Notes: generated by a model not told the origin, from the letters alone. A stretch of DNA of 57,375 bases from Actinomycetes bacterium (GCA_023424135.1 JAFAEH010000150.1:1-57375); one strand, 5' to 3'; shown: positions 4,750 through 25,599, counted from the stretch's first letter. Program-made: numbers and translations.

Positions 4750-4750
4750 G
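4727..4750 (+). repeat. att core, left (tRNA-side) copy GTTCAAATCCCACCGCTACCGCCG
   Basis: Matches 49740-49763 at 23 of 24 nt. Confidence 0.93.
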
Positions 4751-5982: not shown

Positions 5983-6323
5983 CAGGCGGCCACCTCTCGA
6001 GAAGCGGCCCAGGCCAGCACCGCGGACCTGCGGTAGCGGAGCGTCCGCTCGCCGAGCCGCACTACCGGCGGGCACGGCAACCCGCCCGAGCGCCAGTGCG
6101 CGAGAGTCGACGGGCTGATGCCGAGCAGCTTGGCGGCCTCCGCGCTCGTCAGGAGTACATCGGCGTCCCGCTGCGGAGCGGTCTGCGCGATGGGGCGGAG
6201 GTCCGCCTGGCGGACCCACTCGTGGAGGCCACGCTGGGCCTCGGTGTCGGCGGCCAGCCAGAGGCCACCGGTGCGCTCGCTGCGCCCGTCATCCGCGGGC
6301 GGGGTCGAAACGAAACTCTCCAT
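5982..6323 (-). CDS. Excisionase / AlpA-like HTH protein
   Basis: LLTSAEAAKLLGISPSTLAHWR...RYRRSAVLAW; translationally coupled to int. Confidence 0.85.
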   Translation of the reverse strand: MESFVSTPPADDGRSERTGGLWLAADTEAQRGLHEWVRQADLRPIAQTAPQRDADVLLTSAEAAKLLGISPSTLAHWRSGGLPCPPVVRLGERTLRYRRSAVLAWAASREVAA

Positions 6324-6403
6324 GGATACCCAATGTGCGGATTTGAACGCCACAGAACGGGAAGCGTTTTCCATTTCCTACAGGGTGATGCACCTCACAC
6401 AAG

Positions 6404-7313: not shown

Positions 7314-7392
7314 TTGACAGCACTGCAACTGTCAGGGACTGTCGAAGTGTCAGACAGCAACTCTGCTGTCAGGCTGAGGCGGTGGATGACCG
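7314..7392 (+). promoter_or_regulatory. Promoter/operator block, copy 1 (TTGACA plus palindromic operators)
   Basis: 79-bp ungapped repeat of 42848-42926 (~12 mismatches); contains TGACAG-N8-CTGTCA and GACAGCA-N4-TGCTGTC. Confidence 0.75.
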
Positions 7393-7429
7393 GCTCGCAG
7401 GGGAAACAGGGCGCAGAGGAGATGGAACG

Positions 7430-9472: not shown

Positions 9473-11140
9473 TCACCGCGCCCGCAGCCGCAGCACGCGC
9501 CGTGCCAGGATCAGCGCCCCACCGCCGAGCAGCAGCCAGACCGCGACCGGGACCAGCCCGCCCGTGGCCGCTGCGTGGGCGAGGGTCCAGAGGCGCTCGT
9601 CGCGCTGCGCCGCGGCCAGCTGTGAGCGGGGCGACTCGTCGGCGAGCTCGCTGGCCGTCAGGTCGGTCTCGATGCTGCGGATGGGCACCGCGACGGGTGC
9701 AGTGGCAGGTGCAGGCTCAGGCTGCGGCTGAGGTGCCACCGGCTCGGGCTGGGGCTCCGGCTCGACCACGGGTGGGTCGACGGGCTCCGGCTCGACGGGC
9801 GTCACGGCATCGGTGACCACCAGGGTCAGGGTCGCGGTGTCCCAGGCGCTGTAGTCCGGGCTGTACCCCTCGACCATCACGGTCCAGGTGCCGGCCGTCG
9901 TCGGCAGGACGGTCGCGGTACGTCCGGCACGAACCCATCCCATGCCATCGCGCAGGCTGACCGGGTCCGCGGTGGTGGCGTAGACGAGCAGGTCGTCGAC
10001 GCTCACGCCGGTAGCCGATGCGCCGGTCAGCAGGTCGATGGTCGCGGTCTCGCCGACGGTCAGCTCGACCGTCTGGTCCTGCAGGTCGACTGTCGGGGTC
10101 GCAGCAGCAGGCACCGCCGTCACGGTGAGCGTCGCGGACCCGGTCAGGGTCCGTGCTGAGCCGGTGGCCGTGCCCGTGACGGGGATGATCACCGTGCCGG
10201 GCTCGGTCGGTGTTGCGGTGACCGTCGCACCGGTCTGGGACAGGCCCAGTCCAGCAGGCGCGACGTCGAGCGCGGCCGTCGCGGCCAGAGCCTCGGTGCC
10301 GACCGCTTCGGGCCGGATCTGCGCGCCGGTCAGCAGGTCGACGCTGGCGGACTGGCCCACAGGCACCGTGATGACCTGGTCCTGCAGGTCCAGACCACAG
10401 TCAGTCAGGACCGGAACCGCAGACTGGACGCTCTCGACGGTACCGTCTAGGCGCTCCAGCTCCAGGCGAGCGCTGGTGGTGTCGGATGGCAGCTCGATGA
10501 CCGCATCGACGTGCCAAGTGGCCGGCGCTCCTGCGCCCGCAGGAGGAGCAGGATCTGTTGGATCCGACTGCACGTAGGCACGTGCCGTGCCACGCCCAGG
10601 CGTGGTGGATGTGGTGCCATCGCTGGAGAAGATCTCGGAGCTCCACCGGGCCACAGTCGGTGCGCCCTCGGATGGCGCCAGGCCGACATCTGCGACATGC
10701 GGCGCCAGCTCGTCACGTGTCGTGATGGACGCGTCCTCCGGTGGGGTCGTCCACGACCATGCGGTGACGTCACCACCGGCGGTCTGAGCAACGACTCGGA
10801 CCGCGCTGCCCGCTCGCGGGTTCTCGTAGGGCGTCGGTGCGTACTCGGAGGTCCAGGCGGTCCGAGCGATGAGTCTGATGTCCGCGATTGGCAGCTCGGC
10901 GCAGAAGCCTCCGAGCTGCATCGATCCGCCGGTGGCGAGGCCGCTGGCTGTCACCTCGACGATGCCCGATCCTGAGTCGCTCGGCTCGGTCCAGCTGAAG
11001 GGGCCGGTGGTGACGTCGGGCAGGACGACGAGGTCGCCATCCGCCGCCGTGGCCGGCAGTGCCAGTCCCATGGCTCCTGCTGATGCGACCGCCACGGCAG
11101 CCGCTGCGCCCGCGATACGGGTCGCGATTCGATTCGTCAT
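9473..11140 (-). CDS. Cell-wall-anchored surface protein / putative adhesin
   Basis: Signal peptide; two DLQDQ-starting Ig-like repeats; EP-rich stalk; AATG followed by TM helix and basic tail; AGGAGG RBS. Confidence 0.75.
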   Translation of the reverse strand: MTNRIATRIAGAAAAVAVASAGAMGLALPATAADGDLVVLPDVTTGPFSWTEPSDSGSGIVEVTASGLATGGSMQLGGFCAELPIADIRLIARTAWTSEYAPTPYENPRAGSAVRVVAQTAGGDVTAWSWTTPPEDASITTRDELAPHVADVGLAPSEGAPTVARWSSEIFSSDGTTSTTPGRGTARAYVQSDPTDPAPPAGAGAPATWHVDAVIELPSDTTSARLELERLDGTVESVQSAVPVLTDCGLDLQDQVITVPVGQSASVDLLTGAQIRPEAVGTEALAATAALDVAPAGLGLSQTGATVTATPTEPGTVIIPVTGTATGSARTLTGSATLTVTAVPAAATPTVDLQDQTVELTVGETATIDLLTGASATGVSVDDLLVYATTADPVSLRDGMGWVRAGRTATVLPTTAGTWTVMVEGYSPDYSAWDTATLTLVVTDAVTPVEPEPVDPPVVEPEPQPEPVAPQPQPEPAPATAPVAVPIRSIETDLTASELADESPRSQLAAAQRDERLWTLAHAAATGGLVPVAVWLLLGGGALILARRVLRLRAR

Positions 11141-11357
11141 GTTGTACCTCCTGGTGCCGCTCTGGCTGCGGCGCAGGGCCGCAATCTGACGACCTCCAAC
11201 ATGCGCCGACGCCGCTGGCACCGGTCGTCGGGCAGCAGGAAGGCCCCGCCGTTGGACGGGGCCTTCCACTGTTTATGCAGGTCAGAGCGCTGAAGATCGA
11301 TCCGTGGCGTGCAAGAGCGGTGTCATGCGCGGTCACAACGTGACCGGGCGCTGCGGC

Positions 11358-12248
11358 TCACTCAGCGACGGCCTCCAGGGCCATGACGGTGACGAAGGAG
11401 CCCACGGTGACCGTCGCGGACGGGTCGGCGTCGGCGTCCGCCCAGACCACCAGTGCGTCGGCGTACCCCTCACCTGTCGACACGAGCTCGACGTGCCAGC
11501 CGGCGCCCTCCACCACCCAGTCGAAGGCCCTGCGGTCGGTGTCGGGCAGCTGGATCTTGACTGGTGCAGCGCCCGGGACGATGACCGACGTGGGGGCGCA
11601 TTCGACGTCGCCGTCCATGTCCAGATCCATCCACCGAGACAGGACCAGGCAGGCCGTCATCTCCTCATCGCCAAGCGTGAGGGGGATCTCGTAGACCTCG
11701 ATCGGGTCTGCGATGAGCGGCAGCCAGCCGTCCGAGGTGCGCGCCTGTACCTCGACGTCGTACGTCGAGCCGCTCTGGACGAATCCGGTCACCACCGCGC
11801 CCAGCGGGCCGCGCTGGGTGAGCGCGCCGGAGGCCACGCGGATCTGCTCGAGGCCGCTGTTCCCCGCCAGCGCTGACAGGTCCAGCACGGCGTCGCTCCC
11901 GGTCGGGATCGTCGGCACGGACGCCGGAGCCGTGAGCAGCCCGCTACTCAGGTCGACTGGACGCACATCGTCCTGGTGCGACCGAGTCGGCCCGTCCAGC
12001 GTGGCCGGGTCGAAGGCCCCGCCGAGCCCCTTGCTCGCGTCGTCGGTCGGCTCACCACCGGGATCGGTGGTCTGCGTGGGCGAGGACACCGGTGGAGGCG
12101 TCGCCACGGGCTCGCTGCCGCCGCCCAGCCTGCTGCCGACAGCGATGCCGACGACCAGCAGCAGGACGGCGCCGACCGCGACGGCGACGGGCACGAGCTG
12201 GCGGCGGGACGGGGCGGACGCGGGGGTTGGGGCGCTCTCGTTCACCAT
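11358..12248 (-). CDS. Membrane-anchored hypothetical protein
   Basis: N-terminal TM helix; AGGAGG RBS; overlaps the FtsK stop codon. Confidence 0.7.
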   Translation of the reverse strand: MVNESAPTPASAPSRRQLVPVAVAVGAVLLLVVGIAVGSRLGGGSEPVATPPPVSSPTQTTDPGGEPTDDASKGLGGAFDPATLDGPTRSHQDDVRPVDLSSGLLTAPASVPTIPTGSDAVLDLSALAGNSGLEQIRVASGALTQRGPLGAVVTGFVQSGSTYDVEVQARTSDGWLPLIADPIEVYEIPLTLGDEEMTACLVLSRWMDLDMDGDVECAPTSVIVPGAAPVKIQLPDTDRRAFDWVVEGAGWHVELVSTGEGYADALVVWADADADPSATVTVGSFVTVMALEAVAE

Positions 12249-13945
12249 GACAGACCTCCTGTTGCGTTGGTTTCCTCCCGATGTGCGGACGGGGTGGCGA
12301 GCTCGTCACCCCAGGGGATTGCACGGTCCGCAGACGCGGCGTCCGCGAAGGCGGCGTCGTCCCAGTTGAGGTCGACGGTGCCCAGGTCCAGCTCCTCGAC
12401 CTCCGCCTCGAGCTCGTCCTCGACGGCGTCCGACATCGCCTCGACACCCCACTGCGTCGCCGTCGGAACGCCACGAGAGCGCAGGAGGGCAGCGAGCGTC
12501 GCCGTCGGTTCGTAGCCGACGCGCATGACACTGACGCCGCCGCCCTCGCCCGCCGTCACAGCGAGACCAGGGGTGGGTGGGTCGCCGAAGGCCGCCAGCG
12601 CGGTGTGCGCCTCGTCGATCTGATCCCCTGCGAAGAGCATCCCGAGTGCTGTCTTCGAGACGGGGTTCTTCGGTGGGCTGAGTTGCACGGCGCTGGACAG
12701 CAGGGACCTGAGCTCACCGCCGATGATCGCGGCGTCCGGCCGCTGGGTCGCGATGACGAGGTGGATGCCGACGAATCGCATCTCGCGCGCCAACTTCCCC
12801 AGCAGGTAATGCGTCATCGTCGTATCGGCCACGAGCTGCTTCATCTCGAGCTGTTCGTCGCTGTCCTTCTCTAGGCCGTTGACGACCTTCGAGTCGGGCA
12901 TGACCAGCAGCGAGCTCGCCTCGTCCACGATGAGCAGCAGCGGACGCACGCGCTCACGCTCACGCACATCGGCAGGCAGCCGGTCCCAGCGATCCGCACC
13001 GTGTCGGGCGAGGATCTGCCGACGGCGCGTCCCCTCCGCGTACACGGCCTGCAGCGTCTCTCGGACCTGTGCCATGGAGTCGGTGCCCCAGGCCGAGATC
13101 CACGGCGCCAGGGCCCCGAAGTCGGTCCGCCCCTTAGATGGGTCGACGACCACGACGACGTCGAAGCCGCGCATGAGCGCGCCCGCAGCGAGGCAGTTGA
13201 TGCCCACGCTCTTACCGCTGCCAGGAGGCCCCACGAGGATCGCGTGCGGGCCAAGCTCAAGATCGAGCGATACGACCTCGCCGTCAGGACCGACACCAAG
13301 CGGCAGCCGGGTCCAGTCGGCGGGGTCGAGGCTGTCCGGCAGGAGGTCGGCGAGCGGGACGGTCGCGGGGAGCTTCGGCTGGTCGCGACGCTCCAGCACG
13401 ATGCGTCCGTCCCAGGAGCCTTCACTCAGCGCCCACCACGCTGCAACGCCCGGCAGGGAGTAGAGCGCGGCCGTGGCATCACGGCCACCGGGATGCCGGA
13501 TGACCTCGTAGCTCTGCGGGAGTCCATCCGCACCCCAGATGCACCGGACGTCCACCTCCCAGGGCGATCCGCCGACCCCGTAGGCGCCTGCCAACCGGTC
13601 ACGGACGGCAGTATCGAAGCTGCCTGCCCAGCAGGCCCGAGCGCGGCGCTCCAGCGGCGCCCACTCGGCCAGGCGTGCGCCTGCCTCGCGCAGCACGCGG
13701 TCGACGGCCTCGGCAGCCCCCTTCGCGTCCCAGCTGGCCACAGCCTCGCTGACGTCCCACGACTCCGGCGCGTCCTCGCCCAGGGTCACGACCTGGCAGC
13801 CCTGGCGGTCCGCAGCGGGCGCGACGGCCACGATCTGCAGGCCGCGCTCGGGGTGGGCGCTGCGCGCCGCACCGATGAGCCCGGCCGCACCGTTGGGACG
13901 GCTCGTGGTGCCCTCCGGCACGACGACGGTGACTGGCGCGCTCAT
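12242..13945 (-). CDS. FtsK/SpoIIIE-family ATPase (TraB-like translocase or coupling protein)
   Basis: Walker A GPPGSGKS; Walker B LLIVDE; IATQRPDA..GGELR; acidic C-terminal tail. Confidence 0.88.
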   Translation of the reverse strand: MSAPVTVVVPEGTTSRPNGAAGLIGAARSAHPERGLQIVAVAPAADRQGCQVVTLGEDAPESWDVSEAVASWDAKGAAEAVDRVLREAGARLAEWAPLERRARACWAGSFDTAVRDRLAGAYGVGGSPWEVDVRCIWGADGLPQSYEVIRHPGGRDATAALYSLPGVAAWWALSEGSWDGRIVLERRDQPKLPATVPLADLLPDSLDPADWTRLPLGVGPDGEVVSLDLELGPHAILVGPPGSGKSVGINCLAAGALMRGFDVVVVVDPSKGRTDFGALAPWISAWGTDSMAQVRETLQAVYAEGTRRRQILARHGADRWDRLPADVRERERVRPLLLIVDEASSLLVMPDSKVVNGLEKDSDEQLEMKQLVADTTMTHYLLGKLAREMRFVGIHLVIATQRPDAAIIGGELRSLLSSAVQLSPPKNPVSKTALGMLFAGDQIDEAHTALAAFGDPPTPGLAVTAGEGGGVSVMRVGYEPTATLAALLRSRGVPTATQWGVEAMSDAVEDELEAEVEELDLGTVDLNWDDAAFADAASADRAIPWGDELATPSAHREETNATGGLSW

Positions 13946-14349
13946 CGTGCCACCACCCCGATCAGGCGCCGCATGTGCCCGTCACGCGGGCCGCGCACCG
14001 TCTGCGTGGCGCGGACGTGGGTCATCGTCACCCGGCGGCTGCCCTCCAGGTCCACTGCGGGTGCCTGCGGACGGGTGCGAGGCGCGTCGATGACCGTGGA
14101 GAGGTCGCCAGCGTCTGCGGCCTCACGCATCCGTGTCAGCGCGCGCTCCGCGGCGGTCAGGTCGGCGGAGTCGTACCGCCCTACGGCGAGGTCATCCGCG
14201 AATCGGAGCATCCAGCTCCGCGTCGCGACCGCCCCCATGAGCGCCAGCTCGGACCCGCCAGAGGCCTGGTCGACCTCGCGGTCCGCCGCCCTGGCGAGCT
14301 CGCGCGCCTGCCGGATGAGCGCGTAGCGACGAGTCAGGAGGTCTGTCAT
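13942..14349 (-). CDS. Hypothetical protein with shared basic C-terminal tag
   Basis: ATGA overlaps on both sides; tail PAVDLE...VRATQTVRGPRDGHMRR. Confidence 0.75.
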   Translation of the reverse strand: MTDLLTRRYALIRQARELARAADREVDQASGGSELALMGAVATRSWMLRFADDLAVGRYDSADLTAAERALTRMREAADAGDLSTVIDAPRTRPQAPAVDLEGSRRVTMTHVRATQTVRGPRDGHMRRLIGVVAR

Positions 14350-14594
14350 GCCGCACCTCCGAGCACGCCGTCGACGGTGCGCGCCTGGTCTGCTGGCGGG
14401 TAGAGGACGACGAGGCGGTTCTCCTCGGTCACGAGCACGAGATCGCTGAGGGTGCCGTCGTCACGGACCAGGAGGGCGCCGGTCTCGGCCAGGCGCCGGT
14501 CAGTGACCGGCGTGCTGTCGGTGCCGGTCGGGGGCTTCCAGCCGGCGGCCAGTGCGGCTGCTCGGGTCGGGAAGATCTGGGTCGTGGTGGTCAT
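14346..14594 (-). CDS. Small hypothetical protein
   Basis: GAGGAG RBS; ATGA overlap. Confidence 0.6.
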   Translation of the reverse strand: MTTTTQIFPTRAAALAAGWKPPTGTDSTPVTDRRLAETGALLVRDDGTLSDLVLVTEENRLVVLYPPADQARTVDGVLGGAA

Positions 14595-14617
14595 CGTGCT
14601 CTCCTCTCGTCAGGGGT

Positions 14618-14650
14618 GGCGGGGGCCGGTGTGAGCGGCCGGCCCCCGCC
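14618..14650 (-). terminator. Hairpin after the 14660-15544 gene
   Basis: GGCGGGGGCCGG-N9-CCGGCCCCCGCC. Confidence 0.55.
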
Positions 14651-14659
14651 GGGTCGGGG

Positions 14660-15544
14660 TCAGCGCTTCAGCTGCCGGCGGACATGCGCCTGGCGGGGAC
14701 CGCGTGCGGTCTGCGTGGCGCGGACGGGCACCGTCGCGACGTGCAGAGGCGCCTCGAGGTCGACTGCCGGACCGCCGGTCGTGGGTGCAGGACCGTCACC
14801 GTCAGGGCCGCTGCCGCCGTCGGGGCCGTCCTCGTCGTCCTCGTCCTCGTCGTCGTCCTCGGCGAGGTCGTCGAGGTACTCCTGCTCCTCGACCCCCCAG
14901 CGGGCGATGGCAGCGTCCACGTCAGCTTCGATCTCGTCCGCTGACAAGTCGCCGGCGTAGAGCTCGTTGGCCGCGTCGCTGAAGCGCGTCTCGTACACGC
15001 TGCCGCTGGGATAGGCGCGCTCGACCTCCAGATCAGTCCCGCTCCAGCGCCAGGACAGGCCAGGTGTGGCCGCCGCCACACGATCGAGCGCGTCGCTCAG
15101 ATCGTCGCTCGCCTCCTCAGTAGCTTCCTCGATCCAAGCCATCTGGCGCTGTCCGCCCGGCTCCCAGGCGTTTTCCTCGACCGCCTGGCGCAGCGCGACG
15201 AGCACGGCCGGCCCGTCCTCGTCCTCGTCGTAGCCGCCGTCGAACTCCGCGACCGTGTTCGAGCCGTCGAAACCGCTCGAGTAGGCATCGACGGCCGCCT
15301 GAGCCTGGCGGCGGATGGCCTCCAGAAGCTCGTTGTAGGCCTGTGCGCTCATGGCCGGGACCTCGATCTGCCGGACGTGCCCGTGCCAGACATCCGACGG
15401 GGTGCCGGATCGATCGGCGTCGTAGTGCTGGACGCTGAGCTCGCCGGTGCGCAGGTCGAGCTCGACGCAGCTCTCCTCGCGGGGGTCGTCGAGGTCGTAG
15501 AACGGCTCCGCGTCGCGGGCCGGGGTGATTCTGATCTCTGCCAC
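14660..15544 (-). CDS. Acidic hypothetical protein with shared basic C-terminal tag (alternative start 15580)
   Basis: D/E-rich body; tail PAVDLE...VRATQTARGPRQAHVRR. Confidence 0.75.
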   Translation of the reverse strand: MAEIRITPARDAEPFYDLDDPREESCVELDLRTGELSVQHYDADRSGTPSDVWHGHVRQIEVPAMSAQAYNELLEAIRRQAQAAVDAYSSGFDGSNTVAEFDGGYDEDEDGPAVLVALRQAVEENAWEPGGQRQMAWIEEATEEASDDLSDALDRVAAATPGLSWRWSGTDLEVERAYPSGSVYETRFSDAANELYAGDLSADEIEADVDAAIARWGVEEQEYLDDLAEDDDEDEDDEDGPDGGSGPDGDGPAPTTGGPAVDLEAPLHVATVPVRATQTARGPRQAHVRRQLKR

Positions 15545-15745
15545 GTCGTCTCTCCCTCTGCCCCCGTAGGGGGCGGTCATCTACCTGGACGTCACTCAAC
15601 ATGCGCCGACTCATCGCGCCCCCACCCCGCACATGAGAGGAACCCGGCCGCTTGGACCGGGTTCTTCAGTGTTTGTGCAGGTCAGAAGCGTGTTTGGGTG
15701 TGTGATACCGAGCCGTCGGGTGCAATGCGCGGTCGCCTGGTGTCC

Positions 15746-16183
15746 CTACTCGCCGCCCTCGTCTCCGGGGTGGATCTCGTGCACCGCAGCGGTGACGCGG
15801 TTGCCCCGCTGCGCGGACTCGTAGGCGGACGCCACATCGGTGAGCAGGCGTCCGATCTGGCCCAGGTGCCGGTCGACGACGCGCGAGATGTCGGTCTCGT
15901 CGAAGATCGGTCCGCTCGGCCGGAACCACGCCGCAGCCCGCTCGGCGTGCGGGCGCACCGCATCAAGGAGCCGGCCGAGCTCGTCAGCCGGCAGGGGCGG
16001 CACGGGCCAGCCGATGGCGTGCCCGACGAGCTGGACGTCGCCGGTCGTGACCAGACCGGTCGCGAGGTCGACGGTGAGCAGGTCGTCATAGCTGACCTCC
16101 GTCACCGGGCCGCCGTCGAGGCGATCTGCGAGGTCGGTCAGCCACTGCACGATGCGCGGCTGCGGGGTGTCGGTTGCGGTCAT
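15746..16183 (-). CDS. Hypothetical protein
   Basis: AGGAG RBS before ATG at 16183. Confidence 0.6.
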   Translation of the reverse strand: MTATDTPQPRIVQWLTDLADRLDGGPVTEVSYDDLLTVDLATGLVTTGDVQLVGHAIGWPVPPLPADELGRLLDAVRPHAERAAAWFRPSGPIFDETDISRVVDRHLGQIGRLLTDVASAYESAQRGNRVTAAVHEIHPGDEGGE

Positions 16184-16203
16184 GGTGTCTCCTGTCGTCG
16201 AGG

Positions 16204-16974
16204 TCATCGGGCACCTACTCGGCGGACGTGCGCATCCCGGTGGACGCCATCGCGGGTGGTCGTGGCGCGGACGTGGACCGTGCGGACCCCACGCGGGGCC
16301 TCGAGGTCCGCGGCGGGGGCCGTGGTGGCCCAGCGAGGCGTCCAGCTCTCGTCCTGCCACGGGTCATAGGCGGCGGGTGCAGGAGCCACAGCGGCAGCGG
16401 CACGGGCAGCGGTGCGCTCACGCTCGACGCGGCGCTCCTCGCGCATCTCACGGATGCCGGCGGGGATGTCGTGCACGAGGTAGCGGCCGAGCGCCTTCGC
16501 ATCCTGGCCGCGGTTGTAGGCCCAGGCCTTCGCCACGCGGCCGACGTACGCGGCGCCATTGCGGGCCTTGCGAGCGGCCCAGCCACGCAGACGCTGACCG
16601 ACGGTGGGCCTGGTGCGCCGCTCGACGTACGTCGAGTACGCGGCCAGAGCCCGGCGCGCCCGGCGGTCCATCAGACCGGCACCCGGCCCGCGCCAGGCGG
16701 CAGCCTGCCTGATCGGCTTGACGGTCCGATTCAGGTCGCGGACGAGCTCACGCCTCTCCTTGTCCGTCAGCCGACGGCGCACCTGAGTGGCCATCTGACC
16801 CTCCGGCGGCTTCCACCCCGCGGGCTGCTGAGTGCTGCGGACCTTCCCCGTGGCCGGGTTGAGCACGATCCACGTCACGCGCTTCTCCTGACCGCCCCGC
16901 TGCGCACCGGCGCGCCGTGCGCCGCGCTGCGCGGCCCACGGGTCCACGGGGCGCGTCGTCTGCTGTGTCGCCAT
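16204..16974 (-). CDS. Arg-rich hypothetical protein with shared basic C-terminal tag
   Basis: GAGGAG RBS; tail PAADLE...VRATTTRDGVHRDAHVRR. Confidence 0.7.
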   Translation of the reverse strand: MATQQTTRPVDPWAAQRGARRAGAQRGGQEKRVTWIVLNPATGKVRSTQQPAGWKPPEGQMATQVRRRLTDKERRELVRDLNRTVKPIRQAAAWRGPGAGLMDRRARRALAAYSTYVERRTRPTVGQRLRGWAARKARNGAAYVGRVAKAWAYNRGQDAKALGRYLVHDIPAGIREMREERRVERERTAARAAAAVAPAPAAYDPWQDESWTPRWATTAPAADLEAPRGVRTVHVRATTTRDGVHRDAHVRRVGAR

Positions 16975-17004
16975 GTCGTGCTCCTCTCAGGTGCGGGTGG
17001 TTGG

Positions 17005-17826
17005 TCAGCGCTTGCGCCGCTGCTCGCGGGTGTAGGTGTAGCCATCGACGCGCTTGCCCTGCCGCGTGTGCGCGGGGACGTGGACGACGTCCACGACCGT
17101 CACCTGCTCGAGGTTGGGGCTGACGCCGATGTAGTGGGCGAATCCGTCGAAATGCCCCGCGTCGATCGCGTTGACGAGCCCGTAGTAGTCGTCGTGGGGG
17201 TCGTGACGGCCACGTGCGTCGGTGATGGTGCCGGTTTCGCGGTGGATGCCCTTCCGGTTCCATCCGGCACGGCTGTAACCATCGGGGCCGTAGAGGTCGC
17301 CGGTCTCGCGGTGGTGGCCACGGAAGTCGAAGCCGCCGCGGTCGAAGCCGGCCTGGTCGTACCCCTCGAAGTCGTACCGGCCCTCCCACCGGGGGTTGTA
17401 CCCCGAGCGGTCGAAACCGCGCCGGTCGAGGCCGCGGCGGCTGTAGCCGTCCTCGCCGTAGTAGGTGCCGGTCCGCTGGTGGCGCCCGGCGGCATCGAAG
17501 CCGCCGGGGTCGACCTCACTGCCGGTGTCCCGGTGGACCGCGCGGATGTCGAAGCCGGCGCGGTCGAAGCCAGCGCGGTCGTACCCGTACTCGTCGAAGC
17601 CCTCGCCATCGAAGCCGTTGCGGGGGTTGCCGGCGCGGTCGCGACCGTAGGAGTCGAACCCCTCGCGGTCGTAACCATCGGCGTCGAGACCGGACATCCG
17701 GTAGCCGTCCGCGTCGTAGCCCGCCCGGGTGTACCCGTGCCGGTTGAAGCCGGCGCGGTTGTAGCCGAACCGGTCCCGCCCGTCGGCGTCGAAGCCGTCG
17801 GCGTCAAACGTCCGTGCCATGGTCAT
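17005..17826 (-). CDS. G-[FY]-[DN]-x-x pentapeptide-repeat protein with a divergent basic C-terminal tag
   Basis: About 25 GFDxx/GYDxx-like repeats; tail NLE...VHVPAHTRQGKRVDGY...RRKR. Confidence 0.75.
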   Translation of the reverse strand: MTMARTFDADGFDADGRDRFGYNRAGFNRHGYTRAGYDADGYRMSGLDADGYDREGFDSYGRDRAGNPRNGFDGEGFDEYGYDRAGFDRAGFDIRAVHRDTGSEVDPGGFDAAGRHQRTGTYYGEDGYSRRGLDRRGFDRSGYNPRWEGRYDFEGYDQAGFDRGGFDFRGHHRETGDLYGPDGYSRAGWNRKGIHRETGTITDARGRHDPHDDYYGLVNAIDAGHFDGFAHYIGVSPNLEQVTVVDVVHVPAHTRQGKRVDGYTYTREQRRKR

Positions 17827-18039
17827 CCCCTACCTATCTGCCCCGTGAGGGGCTGGTCGTACTGCCGGTCGAGGTGATCCACCTCTACCTATCTTTCATG
17901 CGCCGACTTGGCAGGCGGGCTCCTGGCGCCGCACGGAACTCCGGGGCGGAACGGGGTTCTCAGCCCCTCTGACCAGCACAAACAACCGTGAGACTGAGCC
18001 GTCGTGTGCAATCCGCGGTCACGCGGTGTCCGAGCGCTG

Positions 18040-19008
18040 TCAGGGCCCGTGCGGGGCCCGCCTGGCGGGCGCCATCCCGCGGCCGGGGGCGTAGACGAAC
18101 TCCGCGTCGGCCGCCAGCACGGTCGGCACGGTCGGCATGGCGCGCAGGACGCCGCCTGTCGCTGCGAGGAGCTCGCGCTCGGCGGCATCGTCGGCCGTGG
18201 CGATCTCAAGGAGACTGCGGTGAGTGCTCAACTCGGCCAGCCTGAAGCCATACTCCCAAGCGCGCCGGTCCACCGCGTCACGCTGCGCGACCACGCCCGG
18301 GGGCAGATTCGTAGCCACCCACGACCCATCCGGCTGGCGGCTCAGTTGGGTCTGGTGACGCTCCATCTCACCGTCGCTCAGGGCGTAGATCGCCTGCACC
18401 TGTACCTCGGTCAGATCGCGTCCGCGGCCGGCGAGCTTGCTGCGGATGACGCGGCCGACCGTCCACGCGACGGCGACCTGTGCTGCGGCCGCGACACGCA
18501 GCCACGACCCGGCTTCCAGTGGGCCGATGTCGGGGACCTCGAGGTCCAGGTGCTCGCTCGCGAGCAGGATCGCCGGCACGCTGGCGAGCAGCGCGACGAA
18601 GGCAGCCAGCGCGACCGGGCTGCCGCCCTGATCCGCGGACGCCCAGCGGGCGCGGATGTGCTTGGCGACGCTGCCGAACGTCGGCTCCCCGGCGCAGGCG
18701 ACGAGCAGCAGCACCGTGATGGCCACCACCCAGCCCCACAGCGGCAGCAGCACGGCGGCGATCATCAGGACCAGCGAGACCCTGACGACGGCCGCTGCGC
18801 GCCGGTTCGTGCGTGCGCGCTCGTCCGCACCTGTGGCCGTCGCGACCTGGCGCCCACCACCAGTGATGCGCCGCACCAGGCCTGTGATCGTGCGGGCGGT
18901 GCGGTGCCACCGCGCGAGCTTGGCGACGATCCAGAGGATGGCGACGCCGATGACGACGGCCAGGACAGTGATGCCGATCGACCGGATCTGATCGAGGAGA
19001 TCGTTCAT
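18040..19008 (-). CDS. Multi-pass membrane protein
   Basis: About 5 hydrophobic segments; start overlaps the stop of the SH3 gene. Confidence 0.7.
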   Translation of the reverse strand: MNDLLDQIRSIGITVLAVVIGVAILWIVAKLARWHRTARTITGLVRRITGGGRQVATATGADERARTNRRAAAVVRVSLVLMIAAVLLPLWGWVVAITVLLLVACAGEPTFGSVAKHIRARWASADQGGSPVALAAFVALLASVPAILLASEHLDLEVPDIGPLEAGSWLRVAAAAQVAVAWTVGRVIRSKLAGRGRDLTEVQVQAIYALSDGEMERHQTQLSRQPDGSWVATNLPPGVVAQRDAVDRRAWEYGFRLAELSTHRSLLEIATADDAAERELLAATGGVLRAMPTVPTVLAADAEFVYAPGRGMAPARRAPHGP

Positions 19009-20138
19009 CAGATGCGCTCCTTCCGGCTGAAGAGCCTGGTGACGCGCGGGCCGAACGCCACGGCAGTGCCGAGGCCGACGACGAGGAGCGCAACGACACC
19101 CCACTGCTTGACCTCACGCAGCGGGTCGAGCTTGGTCTTGGTGTCGTCTGCCTTCTCGCTAGCCTTGTCGGTGAGTTCGTCAGTCTTGTACTTAATGTCA
19201 GACCACTCGTCCTTGGCCTTGTACTTGATCTCCTCCCAGGTGCTCGACGTCGGCGACGCGGACGGGTCATCGGTGGCGGCGAGGTCCTCCGCCTGTACCC
19301 ACATGACCTCGTCGTCCCACTCGACAGCGGTCCAGCCATCGACGAGCGTCTGCCCGACCATCAGCTCGGTCCCGGCGTCCACGGTCTCGACGACCTCAGC
19401 CCCGACGCTCGCCGGTACGTCGACGAGGTCGACATCGGTGCTCACGGTGCGCTGCGTGGCGCGCGCGAGCAGTGCGTCATCGTCGGGGGTCAGGTAGACA
19501 CGATCGGCGTAGGTCCAGCCCTCGAGGCTGCGGCCCACGACGCTGACGTACCGGAAGCCGGCGTTGTCACCGAAGAGCGCGGCGCCGCCGACGTCGCCCT
19601 CCTGGGTCGACTCGCTGGTCTGTACGGCTTCACCGGGCTCGACCTGACCGAGGCGCGGTGCCTGGGCGGTGGGGTACGCGAAGACGGGCGCGCTCTGAGA
19701 GAGAGCCGCGACAGCAGCGGACCCCAGGCCCACTCCGGTGGAGTGCGGCTGGGGCTTGATGCCGAGCCTGTCCAGGCGCGGCGCGTCGACGACCAGCGCG
19801 ACATCACCGCTGTGGACCCATCCCCACGTGCCGGCGTCGAGCTCCACCGCGTACCACTGGGTGCCAGTGGCCTCCTCGGTGATGGTCGCGCTGCTGCCCG
19901 ACACCTCGACGCCGACCTGCAGGGTGCCGACGACCGGCTGCTGGAAGCCAGGGTCTACCCGGACCTGCGCGGGCGAGAGCGCGATCAGGGTGGCGTCCAT
20001 GTCCGGCTGGGCGAGCACGTGGCCGTCAGCCTCAGCCGTCACGGCCGGGTTGGGAGCGGGCGCCACGGCCGCTGCCGTGGTCAGAGTGACGAGCGCAGCG
20101 GCGAGCGCGGCTGCGGTCAGGATGCGGGGTGTTCTCAT
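19008..20138 (-). CDS. Exported SH3b-domain protein with C-terminal TM anchor
   Basis: Signal peptide; three SH3b-like units (WY.V...GWVH, EGWTYA, GWTAV..MWV); C-terminal TM helix. Confidence 0.7.
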   Translation of the reverse strand: MRTPRILTAAALAAALVTLTTAAAVAPAPNPAVTAEADGHVLAQPDMDATLIALSPAQVRVDPGFQQPVVGTLQVGVEVSGSSATITEEATGTQWYAVELDAGTWGWVHSGDVALVVDAPRLDRLGIKPQPHSTGVGLGSAAVAALSQSAPVFAYPTAQAPRLGQVEPGEAVQTSESTQEGDVGGAALFGDNAGFRYVSVVGRSLEGWTYADRVYLTPDDDALLARATQRTVSTDVDLVDVPASVGAEVVETVDAGTELMVGQTLVDGWTAVEWDDEVMWVQAEDLAATDDPSASPTSSTWEEIKYKAKDEWSDIKYKTDELTDKASEKADDTKTKLDPLREVKQWGVVALLVVGLGTAVAFGPRVTRLFSRKERI

Positions 20139-20578
20139 GGGGTCCTCCGGCGGGTTGATGTGCGTCCGTCACTGGACGACATGCGCCGGACGTGCGGACG
20201 GCGCTGAGGTCGTGCCTCAGCGAGCTCGTCGACGGCCCGCCAGGCGGCCGTGTCGATGCGGCGCAGGGCGACCCGCGCCCCGGTCTCATCGGTCCAGATC
20301 TCGGTCAGCTCGGCGTCCCAGTCGACGTCCAGCACTGTCGCCATGCCGGTCCCGACCACCGGCGCGACGGTGACCGTGGGGGCAGCCGCATCGCCGCCGA
20401 TGAGGACGGTCAGGCTGCCCCGCAGGCCGAGCGTCGTGATGCGGATCTGCGCCGAACGCACGGCGACGGCGAGCAGGTCGGACAGCGTCGCGTCGACGTG
20501 GCGCTCGACGATGGCGAGCATGGCCGCGTGATGGGCCGCGAGAGCTGGGGTGGCGGGGACGAAGAGCGTGTCCGGCAT
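20135..20578 (-). CDS. Hypothetical protein
   Basis: AGGAGG RBS; ATGA overlap; RRPHVRR near the C-terminus. Confidence 0.6.
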   Translation of the reverse strand: MPDTLFVPATPALAAHHAAMLAIVERHVDATLSDLLAVAVRSAQIRITTLGLRGSLTVLIGGDAAAPTVTVAPVVGTGMATVLDVDWDAELTEIWTDETGARVALRRIDTAAWRAVDELAEARPQRRPHVRRMSSSDGRTSTRRRTP

Positions 20579-20781
20579 GGTGGCCTCCTGGGTGGTCGTC
20601 GTGTGGCGGTCTGGGCTCCTCACGAGCCCCTATTGAGAGGCTCTGTCAGTTGTGAAATCGCGTCTATGGGACTCGCGCCGTCAACGCTGCGCTCATGCAA
20701 CTGGATGCCGTTTGCGCAGGTCAGAACCCGCGTGTGGTCCGCAGCGGATGGTGAAAGACGATCCGCGGCGTGAAGGCCGCG

Positions 20782-21564
20782 TCAGGCGGCTACGAGCTCG
20801 CGGGCGGCCCGTGCGTCGCGCCAGACCGTCACGCCGCTGACGCGCAGGACCGCAGCGATGGCGGCGTCGTCCAGACCAACGAGCGGCTCGCGAAGCGCCT
20901 CGGCGATGACCGCACGGTCAGCCGGCTGAAGCCCGGCGGGGATCAGACCACTCAGGTGCAGGAGCTTCACGCGCGTGCCGAGCCGGGTGACCGGCACCCC
21001 GGCGCGGGCCTCCACCGCAGCGGCGAGGAGCTTGGCCAGGCCGCGCGCGCCGTAGCGGCCCGCGTAGCGCACCAGGTCGTGGGTCTCCGCCTGGGGGATG
21101 CGGGCGTTCGTCATCGTGACCGCGCATGCCTGCATCACGCGGCGAACGCCGGGGTGCGGGCGACGCTCGGCAGGCCGCACGGCCGCGATGCGCTCGGCTA
21201 CGTCGGCGCGGACGCTCGCGACGACACCGGCGACGATCCGCTTGAGCGTGCCGAGCGGCACGCCGGACGCGCTCGCGATCTCCGGCAGCGTCATGCCCCG
21301 GTTGCGCAGGACGGCGACGTGACGCTGGACGACCGCGACGTCGACCTTCTGCGGGCCGGTCCCGAGCTCGCGACGCGCACGGCGGCGGCGCTCGTAGGCC
21401 GCGTGGCGCGCCCGGTGTGCCTCCAGGTCGGTCACGACCCTGCGCGCGGCGCTCACGGCCGCGGGGTCAGCGCCGCCCGGGATACGGGCGAGCAGGTCGT
21501 TGTCGTTGGCGAAGAGGGCGCTGGCGATAGCGCGGTCCTCGCGTGTCAGGGTTGCTGCATCCAT
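20782..21564 (-). CDS. Multi-HTH DNA-binding protein
   Basis: GMTLPEIASASGVPLGTLKRI and DAAIAAVLRVSGVTVWR HTH-like motifs. Confidence 0.7.
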   Translation of the reverse strand: MDAATLTREDRAIASALFANDNDLLARIPGGADPAAVSAARRVVTDLEAHRARHAAYERRRRARRELGTGPQKVDVAVVQRHVAVLRNRGMTLPEIASASGVPLGTLKRIVAGVVASVRADVAERIAAVRPAERRPHPGVRRVMQACAVTMTNARIPQAETHDLVRYAGRYGARGLAKLLAAAVEARAGVPVTRLGTRVKLLHLSGLIPAGLQPADRAVIAEALREPLVGLDDAAIAAVLRVSGVTVWRDARAARELVAA

Positions 21565-21654
21565 GGTGTTCCCTCTCTTGACAAGCGGACATCGGTGTTG
21601 GGTTGGTGGCCGGCCGCTGGGGATCGACCTCGGGCCTCCCCGGCGGGCCGGGTC

Positions 21655-22470
21655 TCATGCGGCGGCTCTCGTGCTCGCGCGAGCTGTCGGCGTGCCTGTG
21701 CGGACCCAGGTCAGGCAGTCGCGGCAGCTGAGCAGTGCGTAGGCGGTGGTCTGCGCACGGGTGGTGCCTGCGCGGATCAGGCGGGTCCCGCCGCAGCTGG
21801 GGCATCCGTCGCGGTCGCCGGTCAGTAGTCCGACGTGTGCGGTGGCCGGTAGCCACGGCAGCAGGTGCAGGTAGAGCTGTTCGGTGAGTGCGACGTCCTG
21901 GCGGCAGTAGCGCGCCATGCGGGCCCATGACCGTGGGTCGCCGGCCATGCAGCCGCGCCACAGCTCCATGCCGCCGGTGTGCACCTTCGCCCCGAGCCCG
22001 AGCTCCTGGGCGACGAAGTCGAGCTTCGCGGACAGGGGGCGGAACCGGCGGCGCACGGTGCGGTAGAGGTCGATGTGCCGGCTGGGGGCTGCGGGTCCGA
22101 GACCGATGCGCGCGAAGTGCCAGCTCAGCACCTTCTCGTCGAAGCCGAGGCCGTTGTAGGTCACGACGGCGTCGGCGGCGCTGAGCGCGGCGTGTACCTG
22201 ACGGAGCATCGTCTCCTCGCCGTCGCGTTCGTCGACCCAGCTGACCTCGCGTTCGCCGAGCCACCTGTAGCCGACGCCGAGGACCCGTGACGGCTCGACG
22301 ATCTGTGCGAGACCGACGTTCTGATCGCGCGTGCCCCACACGAGAGCGGTCGCGGGCGCGCACTCGATGTCGTACGTGAGGATGCGGGCCGGCTTTCGCG
22401 CCATGCGGCGTCGGTTCGCGGCGGCGCGACGATGCGCGACCGTGGTCAGGTCCGAGACGACGGCGGTCAT
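21655..22470 (-). CDS. RNase H-like / DNA polymerase-type 3'-5' exonuclease with C-terminal Zn ribbon (phage-type)
   Basis: YDIE, YNGLGFD, HIDLY and YCRQDV motifs; CPSCG...CRDC. Confidence 0.85.
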   Translation of the reverse strand: MTAVVSDLTTVAHRRAAANRRRMARKPARILTYDIECAPATALVWGTRDQNVGLAQIVEPSRVLGVGYRWLGEREVSWVDERDGEETMLRQVHAALSAADAVVTYNGLGFDEKVLSWHFARIGLGPAAPSRHIDLYRTVRRRFRPLSAKLDFVAQELGLGAKVHTGGMELWRGCMAGDPRSWARMARYCRQDVALTEQLYLHLLPWLPATAHVGLLTGDRDGCPSCGGTRLIRAGTTRAQTTAYALLSCRDCLTWVRTGTPTARASTRAAA

Positions 22471-22739
22471 GGCGCCACCTCCGTGGTGTCGGCCGCGCGC
22501 ATGCGTCGGCGCTCCATGGCGGTGTGACCGCCCCGCACGAACCACCTGTCGGGGGTGGTGCTGGTGAGGTCGTCGGTCAGGCACGCATCCCGGACGGGGC
22601 AGTGCTGGCAGCCGGCCTCGATGACGAGGCGGTCGCGCAGCGCCAGGGTGGCGGGAGGTAGGTCTGCGGTGATCAGGTCGCGCAGCGGTGGCTGTGCGCA
22701 GACGGCCTGGGTGCTCCAGTGCTGGTCAGAACGTGCCAT
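22467..22739 (-). CDS. WhiB-family transcriptional regulator
   Basis: W..QAVC...CQHCPVRDAC...VRGG.T..ERR (four Cys; variant of the GVWGG turn). Confidence 0.8.
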   Translation of the reverse strand: MARSDQHWSTQAVCAQPPLRDLITADLPPATLALRDRLVIEAGCQHCPVRDACLTDDLTSTTPDRWFVRGGHTAMERRRMRAADTTEVAP

Positions 22740-25599
22740 CGCCGGGCACCTCCTCGGTCGTGGTGGTCTCGAGATCGATGCCGAGCTTCGCGACGGGGAC
22801 GATCCAGCCGCGCGGGCGGCTGGGGATTCCGACGGTGTTGTGGCGTACGTCGCGGCCACCGACGTAGCCGGCCGCGGTCATCGCGGCCTGCAGCTTGGCC
22901 GGGGCGATACCGAGCTGACCGGTGCGGATGGCTGCCGTGACGGCGCCGGGGGTGACGACCACGCTGGTGCGGTCGCGGCTCAGCCACCCCAGGAGCTCGC
23001 CACGGGGGACCCACAGCGCGTCGCGGCTGTCGTCGCGGTGCCATCCGCAGGCGGCGGGGCTCTGCGGGCGGGTTCCGTCATGGGCCTGGACGTAGGCGAC
23101 CCGACGCTCGACCTGGTCGGCCAGGACTGCCAGGACGCGAGCTGCGGGGTCTGCCTCGAGGTGGATGTGCTGGTTGCCGGTCACGAGCCGGCCCAGGGCG
23201 GGCTTGATGACGGCCTGCCATGAGGGCATGAGGTCCAGCACGCCGTGCTCGCGTGCCCAGCGCAGGAGCATCCGCCAGCCTGTGGAGACCACCGAGGCGG
23301 TTTCGCCTGCCCGGTCGGTGCCGAGGTGCTCCATCGACAGGCGCCACTGGTGCTCAGCGTCCTGGCGCAGGTGGAGCAGCGGGTCCTTGCCGGAGGCCTG
23401 GGCCTGGGCCATCAGCTGTGCGAGCCAGCGCATGTAGTGCGCCCACGCGGCACGGGCGAGCCCGGTGGCGCCGTAGGTCGCGTTGAAGTGGTCGACGGCG
23501 CCGCCCGCGGCGAGGTCGACGTCACCCTCGACGAGCTCGACGACGGCGACACGCTGCATCGTGGCGCCGTCGGGGTGGGCCTCCTCGCCGGTCATCAGCG
23601 CGACCGTGCTGATGGGCAGGCCACGGCGCATGCCGCCCTCGCGGGTCGCCTTGGCGTTGCTCGCACCGGTGTACGCGCCGCGTGCGAGCGCACCGAAGGC
23701 CCGCTTGACGCCGAGGTCGCCCTCATCGCCCGCGAGCTTGAAATCGTCGGCGAAGAGGGGGGCGTCGCGGTGCCAGGAGGCGACGGCCTTCGCGGCGGCC
23801 TCGGACGACCCGGGCAGGTCCAGCGCGAAGCTCGCAGGCCCGGTGCTGTTCCAGAACCAGGACGCCGCGCCGAGCAGGTGGCTCTTGCCGACCTTCGGGA
23901 GCGCCTTGGTCAGGACCGAGCAGCGGCGCGACAGCCGCAGCGGGGCGGCAGCCATGCCTCCGATCAGCGCGACCCCTGCCTCCGGGCGCTGGGGTGCCAT
24001 CGCGAGCAGCGCTGCGAACGCCTGCACGGCCTCGCGCAGCTCTGCCCCCTCGGCGACGTGGGTCCAGCCCGTCGTGCGCTGGGCGTCGGTGAGGGCGTCG
24101 TCGTCGGACCCGGCCGGTGGGCCGGCGGTGATCGCGTCGGTCGGCCCGTCGGCGGTCATCGACCCGGCGGGTGCTACGAAGGTCGGCCCGTGCTCGGGGT
24201 CGACCAGCCACCCGGTGGAGGTGAACCGGCGGCCAGGCACCTGGCCGGCGCCGTCAGCGCCCAGGATGCGCAGACAGTTCGCCACGTAGGCGCGGTGGGC
24301 GGGACGCTCAGGCAGCGCGACCGCCGCACCGGCGTAGTCGACAACCCTGGCTGCGTCGGTGCTCTCGGTCTCCGAGAGGTCATCGACGGACCAGCGGCGG
24401 CGGTCGGCCCGGATGATCTCGACCGCCCAGCGGGGGCGCACGCCGGTGACCGGTGCTGCGAGGCCCCGGGCGTCGATCTGGATCTGTGTCTCGTAGCGGG
24501 TGCGCCACGCGAGCCAGTCCGTGATGCGCTCGACGACGAGCACCTCGCGCTGCTGCTTCTCGTCCCACTTCTTCGAGCCGGCCCACAGCCCGTGCTCAGG
24601 GCCGCCGACGACTGCCATGACGCCGTCCTGCACGAGGATCTTGCGACCGGACCAGGCCGTCAGCAGGTCCGGCACGGTGACCCCGGCCTCGCCCATCGCC
24701 GTGGCCACCAGGTCGGCTGCGGGCTCGTCGATGAAGATCTCGTGCGCAGGAGGGGCGGCGTTGAGCAGGAGCGTCAGCGGGTAGAGCTGTCCAGTCGCGA
24801 GCTCGGCGGCCAGGTAGTCGTCCGCGCCGCGCTTCGGGTCAGCCTCGGTGGCCGGGATGCGCGGGATGTAGACGGTCGCGCCGTACTTCTGCAGGAGCTT
24901 CGCGGTCTTCCGCAGAGCGCTCTTGACCATCGCGTTCGTCATCGAGTCGGCGTCGAAGGCGAGGTACACGTCGCGACCACGCAGGGGCATCTTGGTGAGC
25001 CCCGGAGCAAGGCGCGGGTCGGCGCCGTCCTTTCCTGCGATGAAACCGAGCGTCACGCCGGTCAGGGTCACCGGGCATACCCGAAGGCCCTCACGGAATG
25101 CGGAGGTCAGCATCGAGTCGGCCTTTGCCTGACCCTCGGTGATGATGAGGGGGACATCCGTGTCCTCGAGCCAGTCCATTGCCAGCGGGTGCACGTCCGG
25201 TGGCAGCGTGCCGTCCTCGCGGTGCAGGCCCCCGGGGATGACGAACTTCTGCCCGGCCGTGGCCGGTGTCTCCAGCCGCAGCTGGAACGTCACGGGGAAG
25301 AACGGATCGTCGGATGTGGCGCTGTACAGGGGGATCACCATCGCCGAGTTACCCTCGGCGTCGACCGCCTTGCGGACCGCAGCGCTGTAGCCGCCGTGCT
25401 CGAGGTCAGGCAGCATCCCGGCCGACGTCGCGGTGTACAGCTCCCGTTCACGTGCCACCCGGGGCCCTACGGCCCGCACGCGCTGGTAGGCACGGTGCGT
25501 CTCCGACAGGCTCTGCGGCCAGTCGGCCTCGGTGCCGATGTCCTGCACCAGGCGTGGGTCCGGGACCATCCGGGCCGCCACAGTTACTGTTCCGGTCAT
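22726..25599 (-). CDS. Primase-helicase replication protein (DUF3854/TOPRIM plus DUF927-like P-loop helicase)
   Basis: IITEGQAKAD, YLAFDAD and GADDYL (TOPRIM); ALPKVGKS Walker A; FADDF Walker B. Confidence 0.82.
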   Translation of the reverse strand: MTGTVTVAARMVPDPRLVQDIGTEADWPQSLSETHRAYQRVRAVGPRVARERELYTATSAGMLPDLEHGGYSAAVRKAVDAEGNSAMVIPLYSATSDDPFFPVTFQLRLETPATAGQKFVIPGGLHREDGTLPPDVHPLAMDWLEDTDVPLIITEGQAKADSMLTSAFREGLRVCPVTLTGVTLGFIAGKDGADPRLAPGLTKMPLRGRDVYLAFDADSMTNAMVKSALRKTAKLLQKYGATVYIPRIPATEADPKRGADDYLAAELATGQLYPLTLLLNAAPPAHEIFIDEPAADLVATAMGEAGVTVPDLLTAWSGRKILVQDGVMAVVGGPEHGLWAGSKKWDEKQQREVLVVERITDWLAWRTRYETQIQIDARGLAAPVTGVRPRWAVEIIRADRRRWSVDDLSETESTDAARVVDYAGAAVALPERPAHRAYVANCLRILGADGAGQVPGRRFTSTGWLVDPEHGPTFVAPAGSMTADGPTDAITAGPPAGSDDDALTDAQRTTGWTHVAEGAELREAVQAFAALLAMAPQRPEAGVALIGGMAAAPLRLSRRCSVLTKALPKVGKSHLLGAASWFWNSTGPASFALDLPGSSEAAAKAVASWHRDAPLFADDFKLAGDEGDLGVKRAFGALARGAYTGASNAKATREGGMRRGLPISTVALMTGEEAHPDGATMQRVAVVELVEGDVDLAAGGAVDHFNATYGATGLARAAWAHYMRWLAQLMAQAQASGKDPLLHLRQDAEHQWRLSMEHLGTDRAGETASVVSTGWRMLLRWAREHGVLDLMPSWQAVIKPALGRLVTGNQHIHLEADPAARVLAVLADQVERRVAYVQAHDGTRPQSPAACGWHRDDSRDALWVPRGELLGWLSRDRTSVVVTPGAVTAAIRTGQLGIAPAKLQAAMTAAGYVGGRDVRHNTVGIPSRPRGWIVPVAKLGIDLETTTTEEVPGDGTF

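Follow-up and report, generated by a model that had tools for sequence, protein, structure and literature searches.

A basic C-terminal peptide module shared by three proteins with unrelated bodies, encoded in the transfer genes of an actinobacterial island resembling an integrative conjugative element

A draft genome of an Actinomycetes bacterium (GCA_023424135.1) carries, on contig JAFAEH010000150.1, a 45-kb island that is integrated at a tRNA-Ser gene and resembles, by its sequence features, an actinomycete integrative conjugative element (AICE). The window analysed here is this whole contig (57,375 nucleotides (nt)), and all coordinates refer to it. Within the transfer gene cluster of the island, three co-oriented minus-strand genes encode proteins that share a conserved basic C-terminal peptide of 36 to 39 residues, hereafter referred to as the tail. 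P0001 (13942–14349; 135 residues) has a body predicted to form a three-helix bundle (residues 1 to 87), followed by a tail predicted to be disordered. P0002 (14660–15580; 306 residues) is an orphan with an extremely acidic body (net charge −53, isoelectric point (pI) 4.05), joined to the tail by an acidic Gly/Pro linker, and P0003 (16204–16974; 256 residues) is an orphan with an extremely basic body (net charge +27), an Ala/Pro linker and the tail. The stop codon of the P0001 gene overlaps the start of a gene encoding an FtsK/SpoIIIE-domain ATPase (12242–13945, minus strand). Here we report that the tail is a real, selected and orphan C-terminal module on these three unrelated proteins, and consider what it might do, an addressing or docking role being plausible.

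The three tail copies span 13945–14061 in P0001 (39 residues, net charge +5), 14663–14770 in P0002 (36 residues, +5) and 16207–16317 in P0003 (37 residues, +4), all on the minus strand, and score 77.7, 79.8 and 72 bits, respectively, against the tail profile; the pI of the tails is about 12. They align over 40 columns, 17 of which are invariant, and the consensus comprises an acidic lead-in, P-A-x-D-L-E, and a basic stretch rich in Val, Thr, His and Arg, V.V.VRAT(Q/T)T.RG.R..H(V/M)RR. Not all conserved positions are basic; P, A, D, L, E, V, A, T, T, G and H are among them. Whole-protein BLASTP comparisons align the tail only, in P0001 and P0002 (20 of 34 residues identical, E = 6e-10), in P0002 and P0003 (24 of 40, E = 1e-6) and in P0001 and P0003 (22 of 41, E = 3e-7). 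The bodies show no mutual similarity in pairwise BLASTP (E ≥ 0.75 for all non-tail segments), and in an all-against-all BLASTP comparison of 42 island proteins the tail pairs make up three of the six pairs that reach E ≤ 0.05. The linkers ahead of the tails are rich in Pro, Ala and Gly or acidic. A first-pass annotation of the window had quoted and aligned these three C-termini, which are exactly as it gave them, and the tail-only matches and the linkers bear out its proposal of a modular unit on unrelated bodies. The 13-nt DNA core that it had pointed out, CGTGGCGCGGACG, is common to all three copies, and a 15-mer around this core is restricted, at zero or one mismatch, to the three tail sites in the window.

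Codon-position bias, substitution rates and RNA folding together identify the peptide as the selected object, as the first-pass annotation had argued from the many synonymous differences. The tail copies differ from one another at 19 to 22 third codon positions and at 7 to 12 first and second positions, and 11 of the 17 invariant amino-acid columns are encoded by more than one codon. The ratio of non-synonymous to synonymous substitution rates (dN/dS) is 0.25 to 0.40 at a dS of 1.0 to 1.3 (Nei–Gojobori, three pairs), and an excess of synonymous over non-synonymous change is seen in every pair (Fisher P = 0.002, 0.03 and 0.02), the pairs not being mutually independent in either calculation. RNAalifold detected no conserved RNA fold in the three tail-coding stretches: many pairs were broken, and the covariation term was positive and hence penalising, at +4.22 kcal/mol. 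The tail copies are old.

The module is rare. In the genome that harbours the island, the tail profile finds the three copies and nothing else, and among 1.84 billion representative proteins it retrieves only the three window proteins and P0004 (39.4 bits, E = 4e-5), a 130-residue orthologue of P0001 with 55% identity, which retains the tail and is a singleton from a single 15.6-kb contig. Between P0001 and P0004, 25 of 39 residues are identical in the tail (64%) and 46 of 96 in the body, so that the tail is the better conserved part; identity is highest at residues 116 to 129 (13 of 14). Among 60 relatives, the tail profile found nothing convincing, five weak partial matches inside long open frames (19 to 22 bits) being judged chance, and a P0001/P0004 profile found relatives in 0 of the 109 other genomes of the genus. 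No further tail carrier was obtained from pattern-based locus searches of genome and metagenome contigs, from a degenerate back-translated DNA pattern of the tail in genome or metagenome collections, or from viral contigs searched with the ATPase. No homologues were detected for P0003 or for residues 1 to 235 of P0002, the ESM Atlas gave no usable match for P0002 or its tail, a PDB profile search with the tail had a best E of 0.42, and the tail matched no Pfam family. A literature search on AICE, TraB, C-terminal signals and protein transfer turned up no paper on such a tag. Since the profile search yields one orthologue beyond the window, the tail, in the form that its sequence has here, does not belong to a widespread addressing system, and with only one further carrier there is nothing to count for an enrichment of the tail near FtsK genes.

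The first-pass annotation had listed five carriers. P0001, P0002 and P0003 stand, and the other two candidates cannot be told from chance, so that the carriers number three. The 273-residue protein encoded at 17005–17826 (minus strand), for which a divergent fourth tail had been proposed, matches the tail profile with 4.4 bits only (E = 1.5), four unrelated open reading frames (ORFs) ranking above it among the 761 of the window, and BLASTP against the tail proteins gives no match (best E = 1.6); it is a neighbour and not a demonstrable tail carrier. The sequence RRPHVRR in a 162-residue protein (20135–20623), previously regarded as a remnant of the tail, lies outside the 15 best profile matches among the same ORFs and is taken as chance. 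The 273-residue protein consists almost entirely of short repeats of the G(F/Y)D-x-x-G type, encoded by a 66-nt DNA unit in eight copies; it matches no family, and a homologue search with its last 49 residues gave none.

AlphaFold2 (AF2) modelled the body of P0001, which has a net charge of −1, as a three-helix bundle with a predicted local distance difference test (pLDDT) score of about 80. For residues 88 to 135 the score is about 30, and two three-residue strands (residues 117 to 119 and 126 to 128) give a slight hint of a hairpin; the P0001 tail is accordingly modelled as disordered. The neighbouring carriers P0002 and P0003 have extreme and opposite net charges also as whole proteins (−48 and +31). 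Searches of Pfam, PHROG and NCBIfam revealed no effector-like or other recognisable domain in the three bodies and no match for P0002; a precomputed Pfam label, PF26929, is attached to P0002. The tail carriers have no match to WXG100 proteins, and the tails contain no Tyr.

The adjacent ATPase consists of 567 residues with a single P-loop motor domain (Pfam PF01580, E = 4e-14). It matches the FtsK motor in the PDB with E = 1e-11, and its top Foldseek matches are the pCW3 coupling protein TcpA, FtsK and EccC (E = 6e-9 for EccC), which confirms the earlier assignment of an FtsK-like ATPase beside the tail genes. The ATG of its gene overlaps the P0001 stop codon as ATGA, and the claimed translational coupling of the last tail gene to the ATPase gene holds up to this extent. 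Its score against the NCBIfam TraB equivalog is 46.6 bits, far below the cut-off of 800 for membership, and its scores against EccCa (34.7 bits, cut-off 509) and EccCb (15.8 bits, cut-off 347) are similarly low. The best relatives, about 30% identical, come from Micrococcales plasmids and from five other genomes of the order. At its C-terminus, the ATPase has 67 residues (codons at 12242–12445) with a net charge of −17, and this acidic extension, which has no equivalent at that end in the aligned distant relatives, is a candidate counterpart of the basic tails. In the AF2 model of the ATPase, confidence is limited to residues 200 to 420, approximately, and does not extend to the N-terminal 196 or the C-terminal 140 residues. 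Co-folding of the ATPase with residues 90 to 135 of P0001 gave a score of 0.00, which, obtained with no controls and a six-row ATPase alignment, counts neither way.

Every credible gene in the stretch 9473–25713 is encoded by the minus strand, in agreement with the co-orientation noted in the first-pass annotation. In order of transcription they encode a 995-residue DUF3854 protein, an RNase-H-like exonuclease, a helix-turn-helix (HTH) protein, the 162-residue protein, a secreted SH3_3 protein, a membrane protein, the 273-residue repeat protein, P0003, a 153-residue protein, P0002, an 82-residue protein, P0001, the FtsK/SpoIIIE-domain ATPase and two membrane-anchored proteins. Neither of the two proteins encoded between the tail genes has a tail. 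The 153-residue acidic protein (15746–16207, minus strand), whose frame was assigned from the G+C content at third codon positions (GC3) and from its translation, is ATGA-coupled to P0003, and the 82-residue protein (14346–14594, minus strand) has a short 'AGWKPP' stretch in common with P0003. The similarity around 'AGWKPP' covers 35 residues (residues 11 to 45 of the 82-residue protein and 46 to 80 of P0003) with 43% identity and a pairwise E of 5e-5. Partial duplications therefore occur in the cluster, which, with both this stretch and the tail shared within it, is a mosaic of at least two shared modules.

The island is bounded on the left by the 3′ end of the tRNA-Ser gene (4661–4749), at 4727–4750 on the plus strand, and on the right by a direct repeat of this 3′ end at 49740–49763, also on the plus strand. 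The two repeats are followed by similar sequence, and GC3 is 0.8 to 0.9 between the repeats and 0.95 to 0.97 outside them. A tyrosine integrase gene (4831–6219, minus strand) adjoins the tRNA-Ser gene, with an excisionase-like HTH_17 gene (5982–6374) beside it. Among the 40 island proteins scanned with Pfam, there was no relaxase, no type IV secretion system (T4SS) family such as VirD4 or VirB4, and no secretion channel family. AICEs are characterized by tRNA integration, an FtsK-SpoIIIE-domain main transfer protein and the transfer of double-stranded DNA (dsDNA), according to the available portion of PMC2440964. We therefore call the island AICE-like on the basis of its tRNA integration with direct repeats at both ends, its integrase and its single FtsK/SpoIIIE-domain transfer protein, found with no relaxase or T4SS component in the scanned set. 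The replication initiators of known AICEs are of the RepSA/RepAM or the prim-pol type; the 995-residue protein, considered for such a role, has DUF3854 alone and no NCBIfam match. A search of the island for over-represented 8-mers that cluster, a weak test for a clt locus with its short repeats recognised by the translocase, showed none. Besides the transfer cluster, the island cargo includes helicase, DUF5131, GMT-wHTH, ABC-transporter and metallophosphatase genes. Towards each end of the island, a pair of small divergent genes flanks a copy of an 84-nt repeat rich in CTGTCAG-like sub-repeats (7314–7397 and 42848–42931, 83% identical), and the two copies look like paralogous operator/promoter regions. 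Moreover, the proteins encoded at 39255–39878 and 47542–48486 are 30% identical over 189 residues (E = 1e-7) and are probably paralogous secreted or lipoprotein-like proteins.

A different terminal tag occurs around distant relatives of the FtsK-like ATPase, where many co-oriented neighbouring genes start with a stretch of about 26 residues, R-x-R-(V/Q)-P-A-G-x3-G-G-Q-(F/W)-(A/T)-T, on differing bodies that include Fic, hexapeptide-transferase (Hexapep) and DUF7007 domains (loci L024, at G401:C7:1160000-1179000; L023, at G419:C8; and L025, at G392:C1). Conservation at L024 also seems to extend to the nucleotides immediately ahead of the start codons. A full-text literature search on the GGQF motif of this tag brought up nothing relevant. 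This N-terminal tag was found in 6 of 400 sampled other genomes of the order, one of them with at least 20 copies within about 60 kb, and a profile search found none in the genome that harbours the island. Four of the six tag-positive genomes are among the five that hold an FtsK-like relative; as two of those genomes supplied the sequences for the tag profile, and the relatives are non-independent, the co-occurrence is a lead rather than a test. It does suggest a possibly recurrent theme, with diverse proteins bearing terminal tags in the vicinity of ATPases of this kind.

Our preferred reading, tentative at a probability of roughly 0.35, is that the tail serves as a portable docking peptide, by which the three accessory proteins would be attached to a common partner in the FtsK-type transfer machinery of the island. 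The tail would have spread through partial duplication inside the transfer gene cluster and is maintained by selection on the peptide. Disordered on its own, it would fold upon binding and thereby tether three unrelated cytoplasmic orphan proteins (a three-helix bundle, a very acidic and a very basic one) to one shared partner, most likely the ATPase, which it might contact through the strongly acidic last 67 residues. Counted in favour of such docking are the tail-only similarity on dissimilar bodies, the selection on the peptide and the conservation of the tail between P0001 and P0004; the predicted disorder of the tail, the linkers, the opposite charges of the bodies, the single co-oriented cluster and the ATGA coupling to the ATPase gene; and the acidic ATPase C-terminus with no equivalent in distant relatives. 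Furthermore, specific contact fits the conserved non-basic positions better than a purely electrostatic tail would. Whereas the tail module, its modularity, the selection on it, its rarity and its gene context are observed, we infer the binding to a partner, the identity of that partner and any effect on transfer. A related arrangement has been proposed for the Streptomyces plasmid pSVH1, in which TraB and Spd proteins would form a multiprotein translocation complex, as described in the accessible text of PMC4447253.

Several points weigh against docking. The tail is tied to the ATPase by gene adjacency alone. The module is known from two elements, with the gene neighbourhood read in one of them, and two elements are too few for co-variation with a partner to show. 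Nucleic-acid binding would suit a basic, Arg-rich peptide just as well, and in P0002 the tail might be masked by the acidic body and linker of the same protein. In addition, the V-R-A-T stretch is encoded by the same four adjacent codons in every copy, which may reflect gene conversion or a superimposed DNA site, and the last codons of two tails, GC(A/C) CGA TGA, are shaped by the overlapping start codon and ribosome-binding site of the next gene, so that the conservation of the tail is not wholly peptide-driven.

The tail might instead be a nucleic-acid-binding arm, the second option of the first-pass annotation, the basic stretch forming a β-hairpin on DNA or RNA and the proteins coating or riding the DNA of the element. 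Its high pI and net positive charge, its conserved Arg residues and Gly(-Pro) turn, the small hairpin hinted at in the AF2 model of P0001 and the context of a DNA-transfer module would all suit such an arm, which we nevertheless regard as somewhat unlikely. A non-specific DNA-binding tail does not usually have a conserved acidic lead-in such as P-A-x-D-L-E or conserve so many residues that are not basic, and neither the PDB nor the Pfam search revealed a likeness to a solved DNA-binding motif or a family. Moreover, such an arm would be redundant on P0003, with its strongly basic body, and is joined in P0002 to a body of charge −53.

It is unlikely that the tail has some other role or is a relic, that is, a degradation or regulatory tag, a strand for tail-to-tail hetero-oligomerisation, or a near-functionless remnant of duplication. 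The mosaic cluster, with its partial duplication between P0003 and the 82-residue protein, provides a setting for such an origin, and homology assigns no function to the tail or to the bodies. However, a dN/dS well below 1 at a dS of about 1 is not expected of a functionless remnant, and neither is a tail that is more conserved than the body between orthologues.

The first-pass annotation favoured a substrate-addressing or export system, in which the tail would direct the three proteins to the FtsK-like ATPase and into the recipient cell, alone or accompanying the DNA. The features listed for docking apply here too. FtsK-family ATPases do read C-terminal signals, as in the structure of EccC (ATPases 2 and 3) with a signal sequence peptide (PDB 4n1a), a structural neighbour of the ATPase; T4SS effectors with varied bodies share the C-terminal delivery domain XVIPCD (available excerpts of PMC8740702); and the N-terminal tag on Fic, hexapeptide-transferase and DUF7007 bodies around distant FtsK-like relatives offers a parallel. 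Set against this, the carrier bodies lack effector-like or other recognisable domains, the scanned island proteins include no secretion channel family, and the AICE and TraB literature, in the portions of PMC2440964 and PMC4447253 available, contains no description of protein transport by TraB-type single-domain ATPases. Export as such is quite doubtful in our judgement. Improbable, and bolder still, is the proposal that the tail represents the first recognisable protein-addressing signal of T4SS-independent TraB/FtsK-type conjugation, in which the ATPase, perhaps through its acidic C-terminus, would recognize the tail and deliver the three proteins to the recipient with or ahead of the dsDNA, P0002 possibly acting as a DNA mimic and P0003 as a DNA-coating protein, with the N-terminal tag as the analogue in a sister system.

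Least credible is that the repeat acts in cis, as DNA or RNA, and that the peptide is a mere by-product. The repeat could then be an intercistronic unit like the mycobacterial interspersed repetitive unit (MIRU), a site that guides the translocase or has a regulatory role, or a coupling element: every copy does lie directly upstream of the next cistron, two of the three ending in an ATGA overlap, and the 13- to 15-nt core is identical in nucleotides and in one orientation throughout, but the third-position bias and low dN/dS, the penalising covariation term, the limitation to three copies in the genome, the retention of the peptide in the orthologue P0004 and the lack of a clustered 8-mer in the island (a weak test) make such a cis-acting role very improbable.

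Actinobacterial conjugation of the FtsK/TraB type is thought to move only dsDNA with very few proteins, and the assembly of its accessory components is poorly understood. A conserved, transferable peptide on unrelated proteins beside the ATPase would provide a handle, a tag of 36 to 39 residues that can be fused, mutated and used for pull-down, and with such a handle one could look for the factors that the ATPase or the DNA brings in and for proteins that accompany the DNA. Rarity limits its value, as a single contig besides this island is known to carry the tag, and any rule derived from it may be local. The N-terminal tag around distant relatives hints at a possibly wider theme of terminal tags beside such ATPases, which deserves separate study.

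MIRUs of mycobacteria are intercistronic operon repeats of 40 to 100 nt, in frame with the flanking genes and with overlapping stop and start codons. DNA-level conservation without codon-position bias and many dispersed copies would be expected of a MIRU-like unit, whereas the tail-coding stretch shows third-position bias and peptide-level selection, occurs in three genomic copies and ends long ORFs rather than forming a separate mini-ORF. In type VII secretion, EsxB carries a C-terminal signal, and WXG100-type helical-hairpin substrates have a C-terminal YxxxD/E motif. The likeness to this system would lie in a short C-terminal substrate peptide and a reader of the FtsK/HerA family, and EccC structures (4n1a and 4nh0) are structural neighbours of the ATPase. 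However, EccC has several ATPase domains and the ATPase described here a single FtsK_SpoIIIE domain; no WXG100-type substrate was found among the tail carriers, and the tail lacks a YxxxD/E motif and is longer, basic and well conserved.

The delivery modules of T4SSs (Arg-rich tails, BID and the XVIPCD of Xanthomonas X-Tfe proteins) likewise consist of one C-terminal module on unrelated bodies, are recognised by the coupling ATPase and have positively charged extreme C-termini of importance for translocation, as far as the available text of PMC8740702 describes them. The tail shares with Arg-rich T4SS signals its position at the extreme C-terminus, in the last 36 to 39 residues, and its charge of +4 to +5; a VirD4/TraG-type coupling protein and a channel are absent from the 40 island proteins scanned. 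XVIPCD, by contrast, folds as a domain of about 120 residues and ends in a Gln-rich tail (PMC8740702, available text), whereas the tail described here is far shorter, is predicted to be disordered and has no sequence similarity to it.

TraB–Spd systems, as the accessible parts of PMC4447253 and PMC2440964 present them, differ from the cluster in several respects. The ATPase is far from TraB, both in its NCBIfam score and in its identity of only about 30% to the best plasmid relatives. Spd proteins are small and often hydrophobic (PMC2440964, in part), unlike the soluble, highly charged carriers of the tail, and the same parts of the two papers do not mention a terminal peptide common to Spd proteins. 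The two nonetheless have in common a tRNA-integrated element, an integrase, a single FtsK/SpoIIIE protein and several small neighbours of unknown fold, and in pSVH1 the small proteins beside TraB interact with one another and with TraB, as reported in the accessible part of PMC4447253.

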